Assembly (NCBI GenBank): GCA_963727535.1 | Contig: CAVSGR010000005.1 | Coordinates: forward strand, 11,251-75,250 | Direction of reading: 5' to 3' | Length of the DNA: 64,000 bases | Source: an uncultured Ignavibacteria bacterium | Lineage (GTDB): Bacteria > Bacteroidota > Ignavibacteria > Ignavibacteriales > Ignavibacteriaceae | Shown: positions 1,408-6,016 of the stretch, one piece after another | How positions within the stretch are numbered: position 1 is the first letter of the stretch | Layout of the letters: each line of letters starts with the position of its first letter | The notes under the pieces: generated by a model | What the model saw: only the letters and a program-made list of their open reading frames with translations | Told to the model about the DNA's origin: nothing | Databases searched by the model: none | Program-made: the position numbers and the translations under genes

Positions 1408-2879
1408 ATGAACAAAAAAATTACAGCCTTTCTTCCTTTCCATGGTGCTGATTACACTCATAAATTAGTTGCTCAACTTACAGACTCAGATCTTGTTGAG
1501 AAGATTTTTCTCTTATCATCAGATGATAAAAGTAAAATGGGTGGATGTGAAACTTTAGTAGTTCAAAATCACTGGGGAACAGAAACAGTCGAAAAAATTA
1601 TTTCAAACGTTTCATCTGGTTTTGTTTTAATTCTTCTTGATGATGTCCGGGTTGAGCTTCAAAAATCTACTTTAGAGAGATTTATAGAAACCGCAGAGTC
1701 AACTGGAGCTGGAATTGTTTATTCTGATTTTTATGAATTAATAAACAGAAATAATATTTCTTATCCGCTGATTAATTATTTACCAGGAAGCTTGCGTGAC
1801 GACTTTGACTTCGGCTCATTATTATTATTAAAAATATCAGCGATAAAAAGAGTTGTTCAATTAATAAATAAAAAATATAAATATGCCGGATTTTATGATC
1901 TTCGTTTAAAGATATCCGAAAATAATTCTTTATTAAGAATACCTGAAAATCTTTATACAATTAAGAAGCAGGAAAACAAAAGAAACTCAGAAGAGCAATT
2001 TGCCTATTTAAATCCGCAGAACAGGGAAATTCAAAATGAAATGGAAGATGCAGTAACTGAACATTTACAAAGAATCGGGGCTTTTCTGGAGCCTGATTTT
2101 GAAAGAGTAAATTTTGAGGAATATAAATTTAATGTTGAAGCATCGGTCGTTATTCCAGTGAAAAATCGTGAATCCACAATTGGCGATGCGATAAAATCGG
2201 CACTGAAACAAAAAACAGATTTCTCTTTCAATATAATTGTTATAGATAATCATTCTGATGATGGAACTGGAAAAGTTATTGAATCGTTTGTAAAAAAGGA
2301 TAAAAGAGTTACTCGTTTAATTCCGAAAAGAAAAGACCTTGAAATTGGTGGATGTTGGAATGAAGCTGTTCAAAATTCTTTATGCGGAAAGTTTGTTTGC
2401 CAGCTTGATAGTGATGATCTATATAAGGACGAAAATACTTTGCAAAAAATCATTGAAGTTTTTAAAAAGAAAAAACTGCCATGGTAGTTGGATCCTACCT
2501 GCTTACAGATTTTAGTTTAAAAGAAATTCCTCCTGGAATTATTGATCATAGAGAATGGACTACGGAAAACGGGCATAACAATATTCTTAGAATTAATGGA
2601 TTCGGAGCGCCGCGTGCATTTTATACACCCGTGTTAAGGAAAATACAAATACCAAATGTAAGTTATGGTGAGGATTATGCGATTGGGTTAGCTATTTCCC
2701 GCAACTATAAAATCAGCAGGATCTATGAACCAATTTATTTTTGCCGCAGGTGGGAAGGCAACTCGGATGCAAAATTAGATATCACAAAAATAAACGCTAA
2801 TAATTTTTATAAAGATAGTTTGAGAACTGCTGAATTGATCGCGAGACAAAAAAAGAATACTACAAAGAAACTTCTTTAA
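1408..2879 (+). pseudogene. Family-2 glycosyltransferase (N-terminal extra domain + GT2 domain) split by a single-base frame disruption in an A-run
   Basis: ORFs 1408-2487 and 2481-2879 read as one protein if one A is added at A5-G-A6 (2464-2475): ...[15 protein letters not shown].... GT2 motifs VVIPVKNRE, IIVIDNHSDDGT and QLDSDD are present. Confidence 0.7.
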
Positions 2880-3849
2880 GTTTTTCTAACTCGGTCCAAA
2901 TTAAAGCACCGGCACCCACAATTGCTGAAGTTCCTCCGGTTAATCCGGATGGAAGAAGCTTTACTTTATTCTTTAATATATTCAGCAAATACATGTTCAT
3001 ATATTTTTCCGTAGCCTTAAACAAAATATCTCCTGCAGAAGTTAAGCCGCCAAAGAGAATTATTGCCTCTGGATTTATAATTGCAGCCAGGTCAGCCAGT
3101 TTTATTCCCAGAATTTTGGATGTAAAATCAAATGTTTTAAGGGCAATCTTGTCTTCCCTGTAGGCAGCATCGCAAATTATTTTTGGAGTAAGATCTTCAA
3201 ATTTATATTCAGTTAGTTCACTTTTCTCTGTAGAATTCGAAAGTAATTCATAAGCAGTCTTTTTAATTCCTGTTGCAGAGACATAAGTTTCGAGGCAGCC
3301 TTTTCTTCCGCAACCACAAACTCTTCCTTCAGGATCATAAATAGTGTGTCCGAGTTCTCCAGCAAAACCATCTTTTCCATAATAGAGTTCCCCGTTTACA
3401 AAGATTCCGCTTCCGACACCTGTACCTAATGTAACTACCACAAAATTCTTCATTCCTTTGGCAGCGCCATACAGAAACTCTCCAATAGCAACAGCATTTG
3501 CGTCGTTGGTTATGACTGCAGGTAATGAAAAATGTTTTTTTATTATTTCTGCTACATTTGTGGTTCCCCACTTTAAATTCGGGGGTTGTTCAACTGTCCC
3601 TTTAAAGTAATTTGCATTAGGTGCGCCTATTCCTACTCCAACCAGATTATAATTATTTCCAATTTTTGAAAGAAGCAATTCACTTTCAGAAATAAGTCTT
3701 TTGAAAAATTTATCGGCAGGGTCCGCAGAGTTTGTTGGAATTGTAGATGAAGTTATAAGATTTCCTTTCTTATCAACGTAGCCGAAAGCTGTGTTGGTAC
3801 CTCCAATATCAATTCCAAGTGTGATATTAATTCTTGTGTGATTCTTCAT
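2860..3849 (-). CDS. ROK-family sugar kinase (glucokinase-like)
   Basis: N-terminal [11 protein letters not shown]-binding motif, ROK Cys motif [10 protein letters not shown], and GAGALIW near the C-terminus. Confidence 0.85.
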
Positions 3850-3859
3850 TTAACTCTCG

Positions 3860-4552
3860 GATTCATAGAAAATAAAAAAAATCATCTTTAAAGGGAGCTA
3901 GCTCACCAAAAAAATCTCCCTAGGAAAGAGTATTTAGAATTTTATCCTCATCGCTTGTTAAAACTTTAAGCTTTCCTTTTATTAAAAAATACATTTCATT
4001 TCCCCAGTCATCTTGTTTAAAGATATAATCACCCGGAGTATAAACAACCGGTCATAAATGCAAAGATACTTCTCTAAGAAAACTATCCCTTTAAACAATG
4101 GTACTCTTTCAAGGATATTTCTTTTAAGATAAATTTCCACGTCTGTTTTTAAACCCATCGGCAAACCGGCGATAAATTCTATTCCATTATAGCCGAGCTT
4201 CTGCCTCCAGATATATTTGTAATAATTTCGTATTCTCTTTTGAAGTACAGACGGTATCTTATGAAAGTTAACGAACGATCTTAGCTTTTCCAGATTATTA
4301 AGAAATTGAGTTCGCGCCGGATTTCTTTTTAAAAGAATATTTGTGATGTTACCAAAAACAAAGCCATAAACACCAACACCAAACAACATTACTACCATTG
4401 CATATATCTTGTGAGAAAAATCAGTCGGCACGACATCGCCGTAACCGACTGTCGTAATTGTTTGAATGCATCAGTATAAAGAATTGACGTATTCTTCACC
4501 AAAATTAATGTGAGTTTTACCCAGAGCTATCCCCTTATTTATTTCCTTCGCT
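3860..4552 (-). pseudogene. Decayed cyclic-nucleotide-binding K+ channel remnant (pore + cNMP domain only)
   Basis: Selectivity filter TTVGYGD is readable at about 4440-4460. There is an in-frame TGA at a Trp-like position (NSLY*CIQTITTVGYGD), a frameshift after VPLFKG, and further TGA and TAG stops inside the cNMP domain (HL*PVVYTPGDYIF..., LS*GDFFGE). The S1-S5 segments are missing. Confidence 0.8.
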
Positions 4553-4620
4553 TATGAAAATAAATTTTCACCGCTCACAAAATAAATAATGTCCGCTAAT
4601 TATACGGACATTTTGTTTTG

Positions 4621-4707
4621 CGGAGAGACAGGGATTCGAACCCCGGAAGGACTTGCATCCTTAACGGTTTTCAAGACCGCCGCATTCAACCACTCTGCCA
4701 TCTCTCC
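4621..4707 (-). tRNA. tRNA-Ser (anticodon UGA), class II with long variable arm
   Basis: Folded by hand: acceptor GGAGAGA/TCTCTCC, D-stem GCA/TGC, anticodon stem GCGGT/ACCGT with loop CTTGAAA, variable arm AGGA..TCCT, T-arm CGGGG-TTCGAAT-CCCTG, discriminator G. CCA is not encoded. Confidence 0.9.
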
Positions 4708-4946
4708 GATTTTAACAATTGCTTAAATTTTATTCCGCTCTTAAAGCTTTTTATTTCTCGTTCTCTTCTAAAAGCTTCAGATTTAGTTTCGAACTCTTCA
4801 GTGTAAACTATCTTCCAGGGAATATATCCTTTGGTTGATTTTGTTTTCCCGGAATTATGCTCATCTAATCTCTTAGTTAAGTTATTTGTATGGCCAATAT
4901 AATATCTCTTTATTTTTAGACTTTTAAGTATATAAATCCAGTACAT
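4686..4946 (-). CDS. Small GIY-YIG nuclease-domain protein (catalytic domain only, about 86 aa)
   Basis: MYWIYILKS...YYIGHTNNL..RLDEHNSG.....KGYIPWKIVYTEEF..KSEA.RRE.EIK matches the GIY-YIG pattern. The start is taken at Met24 of ORF 4686-5015. The 3' end overlaps the tRNA by 22 nt. Confidence 0.8.
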   Translation of the reverse strand: MYWIYILKSLKIKRYYIGHTNNLTKRLDEHNSGKTKSTKGYIPWKIVYTEEFETKSEAFRREREIKSFKSGIKFKQLLKSERWQSG

Positions 4947-4965
4947 TTTCCAAAAATGTTTCTCC

Positions 4966-5052
4966 TCAAGACCGCCGCATTTCCCGCGAAGCGGGATCTC
5001 GCTTTGCGATGACAACCTTTATCCCGCTACGCGGGAACTCTGCCATCTCTCC
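4966..5052 (-). pseudogene. Orphan copy of the 5' half of tRNA-Ser(UGA) (5' end to anticodon), with a 56-nt hairpin insert in place of the D-loop
   Basis: 4966-4981 is identical to 4671-4686 and 5038-5053 is identical to 4693-4708. The sequence between differs: 56 nt here versus 6 nt in the functional gene. Confidence 0.75.
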
Positions 5053-5248
5053 GGTCTATAAAAACTAGTAAATTTATATTTACTACATACCAAATATATC
5101 AATACTTTCTTGATTGGACAATTCTTAATGAATGTATAATGTAGAGTTTAGAATGTAGAATTATTTTTTTTCATAAATCTTTGTTTACTCCTTGTTTGAT
5201 TTAAGATGGTAAGGAAATATATTTAATTTTTAAAATTCAGGAAAAAAA

Positions 5249-6016
5249 TTGAACAAACAGGAATTAGACAACTTCAAATCTTTCAGCAAATACCTTTCTG
5301 ATGAAAGTGGCGAGATAATAAAGAATTATTTCAGGACAGATTTTAATATCGAATCCAAACAAGATCTTTCTCCCGTTACAATTGCAGACAAGAAATCTGA
5401 AGAGACGATGCGTGAAATTATAATGAAAGAATTTCCGGATCACGGGATAATTGGGGAGGAGTTTGGCGAGTATAATAAAGATGCCGAGTATAAATGGATA
5501 CTCGATCCGATTGACGGGACAAAAAGCTTTATTTGCGGTGCGGTTGCTTTTGGTACTTTGATTGCACTTACAAAAAACGGGGAACCCGTTTTGGGTGTTA
5601 TCAATCAACCTATTCTAGATGAGTTTTTGTTAGGTGATAATAACAGCACAGAATTAAATGGTCGGGCAGTTAAGATGAGAGCTTGTAATAAAATTGAAGA
5701 TGCTGTTCTAGTGACAACTGATTTTCTGCACATAGAAAAATATCAAAACATAAAAAAATTTCAGGAATTAATTAAGAAAGTAAAATTGTACAGGGGATGG
5801 GGAGATTGTTATGGTTACTATTTGCAGGCAACAGGCTATATAGATATAATGGTCGACCCGGTTATGAACATCTGGGACATGATGGCATTGGTTCCGGTTA
5901 TAAAAGGAGCGGGAGGAATAATTACTGATTACCAGGGTGAAGATGTGCTTAAAGGAACTAGTGTTATTTCAGCTTCACCAGCTATTCATTCAGCAGTAAT
6001 TAAATCGCTTAATTAA
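5249..6016 (+). CDS. Inositol monophosphatase family protein (IMPase / HisN-like)
   Basis: Motifs GEE, WILDPIDGTKSF and WDMMA are present. TTG start as given in the ORF track. Confidence 0.85.
   Translation: MNKQELDNFKSFSKYLSDESGEIIKNYFRTDFNIESKQDLSPVTIADKKSEETMREIIMKEFPDHGIIGEEFGEYNKDAEYKWILDPIDGTKSFICGAVAFGTLIALTKNGEPVLGVINQPILDEFLLGDNNSTELNGRAVKMRACNKIEDAVLVTTDFLHIEKYQNIKKFQELIKKVKLYRGWGDCYGYYLQATGYIDIMVDPVMNIWDMMALVPVIKGAGGIITDYQGEDVLKGTSVISASPAIHSAVIKSLN

Follow-up and report, generated by a model that had tools for sequence, protein, structure and literature searches.

The window analysed here, a 64-kb stretch of contig CAVSGR010000005.1 from an uncultured Ignavibacteria bacterium, carries on its minus strand a very small gene for a GIY-YIG nuclease, located between a complete tRNA-Ser(UGA) gene and an orphan that duplicates the 5′ part of this tRNA. 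The balance of the evidence tips slightly towards reading this region as a homing-type selfish cassette of approximately 345 bp, which is inserted within the 5′ portion of that tRNA gene and has restored the gene that it entered. The same architecture recurs beside tRNA genes in many bacterial phyla; the cassette is polymorphic for presence and absence at its own locus, occurs elsewhere in tandem arrays, falls into target-specific lineages that cross phylum boundaries, is kept under purifying selection and has recently been exchanged between sister lineages. Relatives were collected in a scan of one genome per species, which gave 80 loci encoding homologues of the open reading frame (ORF), and further states of the tRNA-Ser locus came from a metagenome scan with the neighbouring protein (L096, L082, L084 and L088/L090); L numbers denote loci from these scans.

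Read along the minus strand, on which the locus is described throughout, the order of elements is a predicted promoter, the orphan tRNA-Ser 5′ part (5053-4966), the GIY-YIG ORF (4946-4686), the complete tRNA-Ser(UGA) (4707-4620) and a predicted terminator. The tRNA, the only one identified by ARAGORN in the window (4620-4707, minus strand), is apparently functional; Rfam places it at 4621-4707 and matches it to RF00005 over its full length with 58.7 bits. An earlier note on this DNA, made from the letters alone, had described an ORF between an orphaned 5′ half and a complete tRNA-Ser(UGA), and every feature of that description is present. The 3′ end of the ORF overlaps the tRNA by 22 nt, as the note had stated, such that the last seven residues and the TGA stop codon are encoded within tRNA positions 1 to about 21/22. 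Two blocks of the tRNA are repeated exactly in the orphan. Block A (5037-5053, minus strand), covering tRNA positions -1 to 16 with the 5′ strands of the acceptor and D-stems and the start of the D-loop, is a copy of the 17 nt at 4692-4708 (ACTCTGCCATCTCTCCG), one nucleotide longer than had been noted. Block B (4966-4981, minus strand), which covers positions 22-37 and comprises the 3′ strand of the D-stem, the 5′ strand of the anticodon stem and the anticodon UGA, is a copy of the 16 nt at 4671-4686 (TCAAGACCGCCGCATT). Each sequence is found twice in the 64 kb, with zero occurrences expected from 100 shuffles. Block B terminates at the last base of the anticodon, position 37, in agreement with the earlier observation that the duplication ends there.

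The putative promoter of the tRNA gene (5093-5121, minus strand) has the form TTGTCC-17 nt-TATATT with a TG element and 9/12 matches, and part of it, TATATTTG, agrees with the Bacteroidota-type -7 motif TAnnTTTG. At the other end, a terminator-like hairpin with a T tract (4578-4612, minus strand) consists of a 9-bp stem, AATGTCCG..CGGACATT, followed by ATTTATTTTG. From this layout, the most economical reading is that promoter, orphan, ORF, tRNA and terminator would form a single transcription unit. Between the orphan and the ATG lies an A-rich leader of 19 nt (4947-4965, minus strand), which is not conserved and is missing in L002 and L096. The spacer and its GGAG are present as the earlier note had them, but a conserved ribosome-binding site they are not: the motif, which lies 18 nt from the ATG, is absent in L001, L002 and L096, the last two having no spacer at all, and it was rejected as a Shine-Dalgarno sequence.

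The orphan is indeed a 5′ part of the tRNA, but its description as a 5′ half overlooked that it is split by two hairpin inserts. The 55 nt between its blocks (5036-4982) consist of these inserts around the retained D-loop bases GGTTG, tRNA positions 17-21 (5013-5017, minus strand), as seen from alignment with the tRNA and with the orphans of L002, L004 and L096. Insert 1 (5018-5036, minus strand; 19 nt) is located at tRNA position 16/17 and comprises the hairpin TCCCGC-GTA-GCGGGA (TCCCGCGTAGCGGGA) followed by TAAA. Insert 2 (4982-5012, minus strand; 31 nt), at position 21/22, contains a mini-hairpin TCGC-AAA-GCGA (TCATCGCAAAGCGAG) followed by TCCCGC-TTC-GCGGGA (ATCCCGCTTCGCGGGA). The two inserts and the kept tRNA bases 17-21 rule out that these 55 nt are degenerate tRNA sequence. 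The two TCCCGC-N3-GCGGGA units, each an inverted copy of the other, are unique within the window, and the hairpins fold far better than shuffled sequence (z = -4.5 for RNA and -4.6 for DNA). Insert 1 is shared with the orphans of L001 and L096, where in L096 it carries a compensatory T:A to C:G change, and is lacking from those of L002 and L004. Insert 2 is found, 100% paired, in all six aligned Ser-type orphans, with a G:C to A:T double change in both orphan copies of L002. Covariation over these six orphans is weak, comprising 2 pairs, a value equalled in 27 of 500 shuffles. The hairpins are the most conserved non-coding part of the cassette design.

Comparison with relatives that share the tRNA-Ser locus reveals both occupied and empty states. 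Two Ignavibacteria metagenome-assembled genomes (MAGs) are syntenic with the window, L001 with flanks that are 80-92% identical and L004 with approximately 76% identity, and in both the cassette lies between a gene of the inositol-monophosphatase family and the tRNA. Besides the window, L001 and L004, the cassette is also present at this locus in L096, in which the neighbouring protein is 63% and the GIY-YIG protein 60% identical and the orphan has the same double-hairpin organization as in the window. The empty site, which the earlier note had proposed to look for in related strains, is found in L082 (neighbour 84% identical), in which the promoter box leads straight into an intact tRNA-Ser and neither ORF nor orphan nor hairpin is present. 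The box, ATTGTCCAATCAAGAAAGTATTGATATATTTGG, is kept in the occupied loci of the window, L001 and L004 as well as in L082, and orphan block A has the same upstream flank as the intact tRNA of the empty locus. Since the junction TTTTATGAGACC/GGAGAG of L082 agrees with the orphan junction TTTTTATAGACC/GGAGAG of the window, the orphan must occupy the original site of the tRNA 5′ end, and from the comparison the occupied state is a clean insertion of 345 bp. The locus thus displays the presence/absence polymorphism that characterizes homing endonuclease genes.

Further states of the same locus are more complex. L084 is empty on the upstream side, and downstream of the same tRNA-Ser(UGA) stand three tandem GIY-YIG ORFs of another lineage (1700-2802, minus strand), which are nearest to the clade associated with tRNA-Arg, at about 50% identity. 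The first of these ORFs begins 2 nt after the tRNA, and the ORFs are separated by 3′ tRNA fragments that carry several small inserted hairpins, among them TCCCTTTGGGA, TTCCAAAGGAA and TCCCGAAGGGA. In L088 and L090 (2596-3000, minus strand) the promoter and the tRNA-Ser are 405 nt apart, and this gap contains a pair of GC hairpins, CACCGCTTTTAGCGGGG and TTCCGCTAAAGCGGAA, similar in kind to those in the orphans of L008 and L010. No ORF and no significant similarity to the cassette ORF were detected in the gap, which may be a decayed cassette. Upstream of the orphan in L001 (2862-2914), tRNA positions 2-17 are followed by the last 14 nt of a GIY-YIG ORF (CAATTGTTAAAAAC), a remnant of an older tandem unit from which the ORF has been deleted.

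The association of the ORF with tRNA genes extends far beyond this locus. In 60 of the 80 homologue loci a tRNA on the same strand abuts the ORF, with two arrangements: in 42 loci the ORF precedes the tRNA, whose start lies anywhere from 39 nt before the ORF stop to 52 nt after it (mostly -39 to +24 nt), and in 18 loci the tRNA comes first and ends 0-152 nt ahead of the ORF start. The density of tRNA genes within 160 nt of the ORFs amounts to 2.66/kb, against 0.04/kb in the rest of the same loci, a 65-fold enrichment, and 67 of the 68 nearby tRNAs lie on the strand of the ORF. The linked tRNAs are specific for Ser, Arg (five anticodons), Tyr, Glu, Gln, Gly, Ala, Lys, Val, Pro, Met, Thr, Asn and Trp. 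Their hosts comprise Ignavibacteriota, many families of Bacteroidota, several lineages of Patescibacteria, Omnitrophota, Lentisphaeria, Marinisomatota, Elusimicrobiota and Nitrospirota, together with a single MAG each of Bacillota and Gammaproteobacteria. The earlier note had suggested to look for other tRNA-linked copies, and dozens of the homologues prove to be linked to tRNA genes with partial tRNA duplications. Tandem tRNA genes are common, and on the basis of a single window the arrangement could have been explained by the ordinary decay of a tandem tRNA duplication next to an unrelated small ORF, with no mobility involved. That explanation is now very improbable: with 60 of 80 loci agreeing in polarity, hairpins inserted at matching tRNA positions, ORFs that stop next to tRNA +1 or overlap it, the 65-fold enrichment and a clean empty site, coincidence is untenable.

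The orphans, too, follow a common plan. Nearly all loci in which the ORF precedes the tRNA have an orphan tRNA copy that starts from position 1 and lies 40-140 nt upstream of the ORF. At least 28 of these 42 orphans are split by a GC-rich hairpin, which is a pure insertion with zero tRNA bases lost, mostly at the junction of D-loop and D-stem (21/22 or 22/23), and the orphan extends to position ~30-39 or occasionally to 50-57. At Arg- and Lys-linked loci the insert is a perfect 20-nt palindrome, CCTGCCTGCCGGCAGGCAGG, identical in 16 instances across families; a second copy is sometimes found at 12/13 or 9/10, and longer versions retain the same 10-nt ends. At loci with the tRNA in front of the ORF the orphan lies downstream and reaches the 3′ end of the tRNA, and here a hairpin takes the place of the anticodon arm or interrupts the T-loop or D-loop. 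Overall, perfect GC-rich hairpins are about nine times denser beside the ORFs than elsewhere in the loci (3.8/kb vs 0.40/kb). Tandem arrays or their remnants are present in L001, L002 and L016. The two complete units of L002 follow each other with a period of 331 nt and contain no non-coding spacer: the ATG comes directly after orphan position 38, and the TGA stop is formed by tRNA positions 19-21, immediately before the insertion point 21/22. Automated annotation does not always recognize such copies. ARAGORN labels a hairpin-substituted copy of tRNA-Val(UAC) in L069 (3237-3314) as 'tRNA-Glu(UUC)' and another disabled copy, in L037 (379-471), as 'tRNA-???'; orphans with replaced anticodon arms can be misannotated as real tRNAs with new anticodons.

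In a different explanation, the element is centred on the palindromes themselves. In such an element the palindromes would be its true ends or its recognition structure, and a structure-specific Slx1-like nuclease would cut the extruded hairpin or cruciform, or a hairpin heteroduplex, instead of a sequence in an empty tRNA gene. The target would be chosen by tRNA-derived homology arms. As one possibility, an excised or circular form bearing a hairpin-split partial tRNA would recombine in Campbell-type or ends-in fashion, where a crossover 5′ of the hairpin would give rise to the ORF-then-tRNA type and a crossover 3′ of it to the tRNA-then-ORF type; the symmetry of 5′ and 3′ orphans, with the hairpin within the disabled copy, fits crossovers on either side of the hairpin. 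One clue comes from Patescibacteria, in which the GIY-YIG ORF of L030, L031, L033, L027 (~2975-3300) and L042 (2968-3273) is nested inside a hairpin with arms of 9-14 nt. The order is TTGTCCCGATT-ORF-AATCGGGACAA in L030, L031 and L033, and GTCCCGCACCTATC-ORF-GATAGGTGCGGGAC, with a 14-nt arm pair, in L042, where the left arm lies within the 3′ end of a ksgA/rsmA-like gene. The cassette of L031 precedes a protein-coding gene and is located between two tandem paralogous Cys-rich genes of about 570-590 residues; the cassette is preceded by an orphan of the first nine codons of this gene family (METKNCQNC) and followed by the complete gene. The nesting of ORFs in hairpins and the borrowed gene piece therefore suggest a hairpin-centred mechanism. 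In addition, the arm motif TCCCGAT..ATCGGGA also occurs as solo hairpins in tRNA orphans, and a palindrome is found 18-60 nt upstream of most Arg-type ORFs, including those at loci without an adjacent tRNA detected by ARAGORN. The hairpin type appears to follow the protein clade, and identical 20-nt palindromes occupy two sites of one orphan in L068 and L073. The Arg-type hairpin is palindromic through its centre, and among stem mismatches G:U is not more frequent than A:C (11 vs 14); the hairpin may act at the level of DNA rather than RNA, although these near-equal counts do not distinguish the two. Compensatory changes are seen in the stems, and the enzymes of the Slx1 family are structure-selective nucleases (PMC1564403, PMC7017083).

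Several observations are difficult to accommodate in a hairpin-centred element. Neither target-site duplications nor any sign of circular or excised forms were found, and a nuclease that cuts its own border favours loss of the element unless cutting is coupled to copying. The covariation in the stems is weak, as described above. GIY-YIG enzymes act by hydrolysis of DNA and are not known to religate it, and no transposase-like chemistry is available to them. Affiliation with terminal-inverted-repeat transposons or miniature inverted-repeat transposable elements is not supported either: inverted-repeat arms are present, but the inserts are pure insertions, with no target-site duplication and no transposase. 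A hairpin-centred element is regarded as a real though distinctly less probable explanation. It would, if tentatively accepted, amount to a class of autonomous mobile DNA of ~330-350 bp, distributed over many phyla including the Candidate Phyla Radiation, in which a structure-specific nuclease of Slx1 type acts on the palindromic hairpin or cruciform of the element and not on a long recognition sequence, targeting is achieved by borrowed gene pieces such as tRNA halves or the first codons of a protein gene, and the host gene is kept alive by replacement of its displaced end. At ~330-350 bp it would rank among the smallest protein-coding mobile units known.

The protein encoded by the ORF (4686-4946, minus strand) consists of 86 residues and is of the Slx1/UPF0213 (YhbQ/YazA) type. 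Pfam GIY-YIG (PF01541) matches residues 1-67 with an E-value of 3.5e-17 and no other domain is detected, as expected from the earlier description of a catalytic domain with no obvious DNA-binding domain. The only matches to solved structures are 1zg2 (2.4e-8) and 1ywl (8.8e-6), both bacterial UPF0213 proteins. Over 81 homologues the residues Y5, Y16, G18, R26, H30, E62 and K66 are 96-98% conserved, with Y5 (of the 'IYI' motif) and Y16-I-G18 at 98%, R26, H30 and K66 likewise at 98% and E62 at 96%. The hallmarks of the GIY-YIG superfamily are thus all present, including N-terminal GIY and YIG motifs approximately 10 residues apart, the catalytic arginine and the metal-binding glutamate. Its nearest relatives, the UPF0213 proteins, and its stand-alone single domain of 86 residues place the protein within the Slx1-like/UPF0213 branch. 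The conservation profile of the 81 homologues, which is not structure-based, contains no conserved asparagine after E62; a C-terminal asparagine is typical of the lineage of UvrC and homing endonucleases and absent in the Slx1-like branch (PMC1564403). The tRNA-linked proteins form a set of their own, with a common EHNSGKTKST motif. A single-sequence AlphaFold model was discarded, as it had a mean predicted local distance difference test score (pLDDT) of 66.7 and a predicted template-modelling score (pTM) of 0.25 and consisted of two long helices, in conflict with the known α/β fold.

In a library of representative proteins the family is very large, comprising 9467 clusters at 50% identity with E ≤1e-3, and 1346 with E ≤1e-10. 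Searches of PHROGs gave no match, those of PADLOC insignificant matches only and those of NCBIfam only a sub-threshold match to a group-I-intron endonuclease. Relatives of the cassette protein are lacking from viral contigs, and phage and plasmid records contain only distant UPF0213 homologues, of which those checked are not linked to tRNA genes. For one UPF0213 homologue, from a human faecal contig that is catalogued as phage, no neighbouring tRNA was seen; in Bacillus subtilis the match is yazA, and in Radiobacillus a plasmid match adjoins rsmI. Many homologues in the databases are 100-130 residues long, the match beginning at residue 20-60, and the longest ORF in the window (4686-5015; 109 residues, TTG start) likewise reads through orphan and hairpin. 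This longer ORF was rejected as the true gene, since homologues begin at the ATG, which in L002 and L096 comes directly after the orphan; the N-terminal extensions of the database homologues are probably miscalled starts.

The evolutionary history of the ORF is not that of its hosts. In a rough neighbour-joining tree the proteins group by adjoining tRNA and orientation, and not by host: a Ser/Tyr clade unites sequences from Ignavibacteria, Bacteroidota, Parcubacteria, a Gammaproteobacteria MAG, Berkelbacteria and Saccharibacteria, and an Arg clade those of Bacteroidota families, a Bacillota MAG and Melioribacteraceae. Between the window and L001, the number of synonymous substitutions per site (dS) is 0.11 in the ORF, which is about 7-fold lower than in the flanking genes (0.71 and 0.83), and the ORF together with the tRNA forms the most similar stretch of the entire alignment. 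Judged from these sequences, the low dS indicates that the ORF would have been exchanged or converted after the lineages of the window and L001 had split. In comparisons over longer distances the ORF dS rises to 1.1 (L004) and 2.1 (L002), which demonstrates that its synonymous sites are free to change. The tRNA-based clades and the ORF dS of 0.11 represent the host-decoupled phylogeny and recent transfer by which homing genes are recognized. The ratio of non-synonymous to synonymous divergence (dN/dS) of the ORF against L001, L002 and L004 is 0.04-0.12; the protein is therefore a working one under maintenance.

The orphans have not been left behind by the tRNA genes that they resemble. At variable sites they share the base of the tRNA of their own locus in 171 of 184 comparisons with intact tRNAs of the same class, and in most orphans segment 1-21 does not differ from the local tRNA. 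Position 7 of the Ser orphans, for example, tracks the local tRNA, with A in the window and L001 and T in L002, L004 and L096. An orphan that is a dead relic would not follow the state of the local tRNA over such distances. Either the orphan is itself constrained, or it is renewed again and again by homing or gene conversion; both fit the agreement.

Maintenance of the protein is also what would be expected if the gene were an immobile accessory gene retained by the host. In that case a Slx1-like nuclease would be useful at heavily transcribed tRNA genes, for instance at R-loops or stalled forks or in tRNA metabolism, and the partial duplications and hairpins would be historical by-products of its acquisition. 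A dN/dS of ~0.1 over long divergence and the identical design at the same locus in L004 and L096 are in line with this explanation, as are the apparently obligatory co-transcription of ORF and tRNA, with no spacer in L002, and the very large size of the family (9467 clusters). In bacteria, moreover, a Slx1-like domain is reported to be fused to a TrmH-like tRNA G18 methyltransferase (PMC1564403). Host retention leaves unexplained, however, why the same design is found at more than 20 tRNA species in unrelated phyla with clades that follow tRNA identity, why tandem arrays (L002, L016 and L084) and the empty L082 exist, and why dS against L001 is 7-fold lower in the ORF. It does not account for the second lineage that invaded the same tRNA or for the analogous arrangement at a protein gene, and the distant UPF0213 homologues checked in phage and plasmid records show no tRNA linkage. 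A gene retained only for its use to the host is therefore considered an unlikely explanation.

For the homing-type cassette with restoration of its target, we infer from the layout a mechanism that specifies the nuclease activity, the cleavage site, the route of repair, the function of the hairpins and the effect of RNase P. The cassette itself consists, in this order, of the GC-rich palindromic hairpins, the tRNA piece 22-37, the gene of the 86-residue nuclease and a fresh copy of tRNA 1-21. Fusion of this fresh copy to the resident 3′ part restores a complete tRNA, while the displaced 5′ part is left, split by hairpins, at the original promoter. The promoter of the tRNA would drive a single transcript comprising leader, orphan, ORF, tRNA and terminator. 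RNase P would then free the tRNA and thereby remove the stop codon from a Ser-type mRNA, which would limit expression of the nuclease; because the ORF stop lies inside the tRNA, full-length protein could be made only from unprocessed transcripts. The nuclease would break a cassette-free copy of the tRNA gene in the region from the D-arm to the anticodon arm, and the break would be repaired by copying the occupied copy, with the tRNA sequence and flanks providing homology. Copies that had lost the cassette via its short direct repeats would be re-converted, which would explain the persistent purifying selection. The hairpins would disable the orphan as a target of the nuclease and, by cutting the 37-nt repeat into blocks of at most 22 nt, slow down deletion of the cassette. 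Much of this agrees with the earlier note, according to which a small GIY-YIG cassette entered the tDNA with a replacement 5′ part and stranded the old one. Its proposal of entry at the anticodon loop does not hold as the sole possibility: an insertion point in the D-loop fits equally well. Entry in the D-loop is plausible because the hairpins of L002, L004 and L096 are located at 21/22, most Arg-type orphans have them at the same junction of D-loop and D-stem, and the Ser-type ORF stops there.

A number of points weigh against a homing-type cassette. The protein comprises a catalytic domain only, and neither domain nor structure-match searches identified a DNA-binding module in its 86 residues, so that site-specific recognition is left unexplained. 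An intact copy of the tRNA, the presumed target, is still present in the occupied allele, and self-immunity or resistance is not evident from the sequence. L082 is nested among occupied relatives and may represent precise loss via the 16-17-nt direct repeats rather than a naive target. Between the window and L001, the segment with orphan and hairpins is ~87-90% similar, compared with 97-98% for the ORF, and going by this alignment the recently exchanged tract may exclude the hairpins. Conserved palindromes, which are found at second sites too with no duplicated target, would not be expected from simple homing. The double-hairpin design at the same locus in L096 and L004, together with an ORF dS against L004 comparable to that of the flanks, shows long vertical persistence. 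Classical homing genes decay after fixation, and such persistence under purifying selection is equally compatible with a gene that the host retains. No pair of near-identical copies could be demonstrated in different tRNA genes of a single genome. Finally, the Slx1-like lineage was judged in a 2006 survey to be vertically inherited and not selfish (PMC1564403).

The cassette resembles several known systems and coincides with none of them. SegB of phage T4 has a demonstrated activity, that of the cassette nuclease being predicted, and is a phage protein of the homing-endonuclease/UvrC lineage, whereas the cassette protein is Slx1-like. It is also larger than the 86-residue protein, and its gene lies between tRNA genes, whereas the cassette splits a tRNA gene, with partial duplication and palindromic hairpins. 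Like the cassette ORF, segB is a free-standing GIY-YIG gene that lies among tRNA genes and outside any intron; its 27-bp recognition site includes an 11-bp conserved motif of the tRNA T-psi-C region, and it drives the inheritance of itself and of neighbouring tRNA genes (PMC2330249). With the free-standing endonuclease genes of organelles the cassette shares a common logic, in that a substitute for the displaced part keeps the target working. In the Allomyces atp6 case, a fungal mitochondrial free-standing endonuclease gene reportedly inserts at the end of a gene together with a replacement segment. The displaced part persists in such organellar cases as a pseudo-fragment, and GIY-YIG ORFs are among them; they target protein-coding genes, usually with an in-frame replacement of the 3′ end, and encode enzymes with DNA-binding regions. 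The cassette differs in residing on bacterial chromosomes, in targeting tRNA genes (and one protein gene in Patescibacteria), in replacing either the 5′ or the 3′ part and in adding hairpins.

Genomic islands and prophages with tyrosine integrases likewise target tRNA genes, restore the gene by a copy carried on the element and have a partial tRNA repeat at their opposite end, but they measure kilobases, encode an integrase and displace the 3′ part, in contrast to the 331-345 bp of the cassette, the 5′ part displaced in the window and the hairpin-split fragment. An integrase island was rejected for the window, as the 345-bp insertion contains a single 86-residue GIY-YIG ORF and no recombinase, and the displaced fragment is 5′. 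Group I introns in the anticodon loops of bacterial tRNAs, some of them with homing endonuclease genes, also invade tRNA genes without killing them, but by RNA self-splicing, whereas the cassette preserves function by duplication of a part at the DNA level. A group I intron was excluded, since an Rfam scan of 4000-5600 found no intron family and the tRNA after the ORF is uninterrupted. The best matches of the protein, the UPF0213 family with YhbQ of Escherichia coli and YazA of B. subtilis, are similarly minimal stand-alone GIY-YIG domains of ~90-100 residues (PMC1564403; PMC7017083), but this family has been described as vertical and repair-related (PMC1564403) and the homologues checked are not tRNA-linked. 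In the full-text literature, our coverage of which is incomplete, no description of tRNA-linked minimal GIY-YIG cassettes in bacteria was found.

Downstream of the tRNA-Ser terminator, ~750 bp separate the unit from a gene for a ROK-family kinase in the window (3864-4619), compared with 48 nt in L001 and ~344 nt in L004. This segment contains an ORF resembling a truncated potassium channel (3982-4431), which has a VGYGDV pore signature ahead of it and no Pfam match, and looks like a gene fragment or an indel hotspot adjoining the tRNA. Metagenomic contigs provide two joints of low depth, both weak, as the runs cover at most 29% of the sampled words of the region and contig placement is dominated by cross-matching tRNA-Ser genes; among RNA-seq runs, none was found to contain the region. 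A contig of run X5 connects 5012 to 4687, such that tRNA positions 1-21 are directly followed by the 21/22 insert; this is the junction expected of a tandem array or of an L002-type orphan without hairpin 1. A second contig connects 4707 to 5423.

Taken together, the locus points to a homing-type cassette, widespread and apparently undescribed, which is built on an unexpected nuclease lineage and combines replacement of a 5′ part with unexplained palindromes. The fusion of a Slx1-like domain with a TrmH-like domain (G18, in the D-loop) in the 2006 survey (PMC1564403) stands alongside the position of most hairpin inserts, in the D-loop or at its edge, in Ser-, Arg- and Lys-linked cassettes, and by analogy a connection of the Slx1-like branch with the D-loop of tRNA or tDNA is possible. 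The palindromes at precise loop positions of a disabled tRNA copy are a phenomenon for which there is so far no explanation. The bacterial UPF0213/Slx1-like members are not known to have an established function, and the homing reading, if true, would provide a biological role for part of this family of 9467 clusters. Recurrent annotation artefacts, such as the pseudo-tRNA of L069 and probably also the spurious N-terminal extensions of GIY-YIG proteins through the orphan, would be explained. A nuclease of ~86 residues that takes its specificity from DNA structure or from partner sequences would be relevant to nuclease mechanism and engineering. Chromosomal tRNA genes of bacteria would be colonised by a homing-type element that needs neither intron nor integrase, and the duplication of a displaced part known from organelles would be in use in bacterial chromosomes as well.

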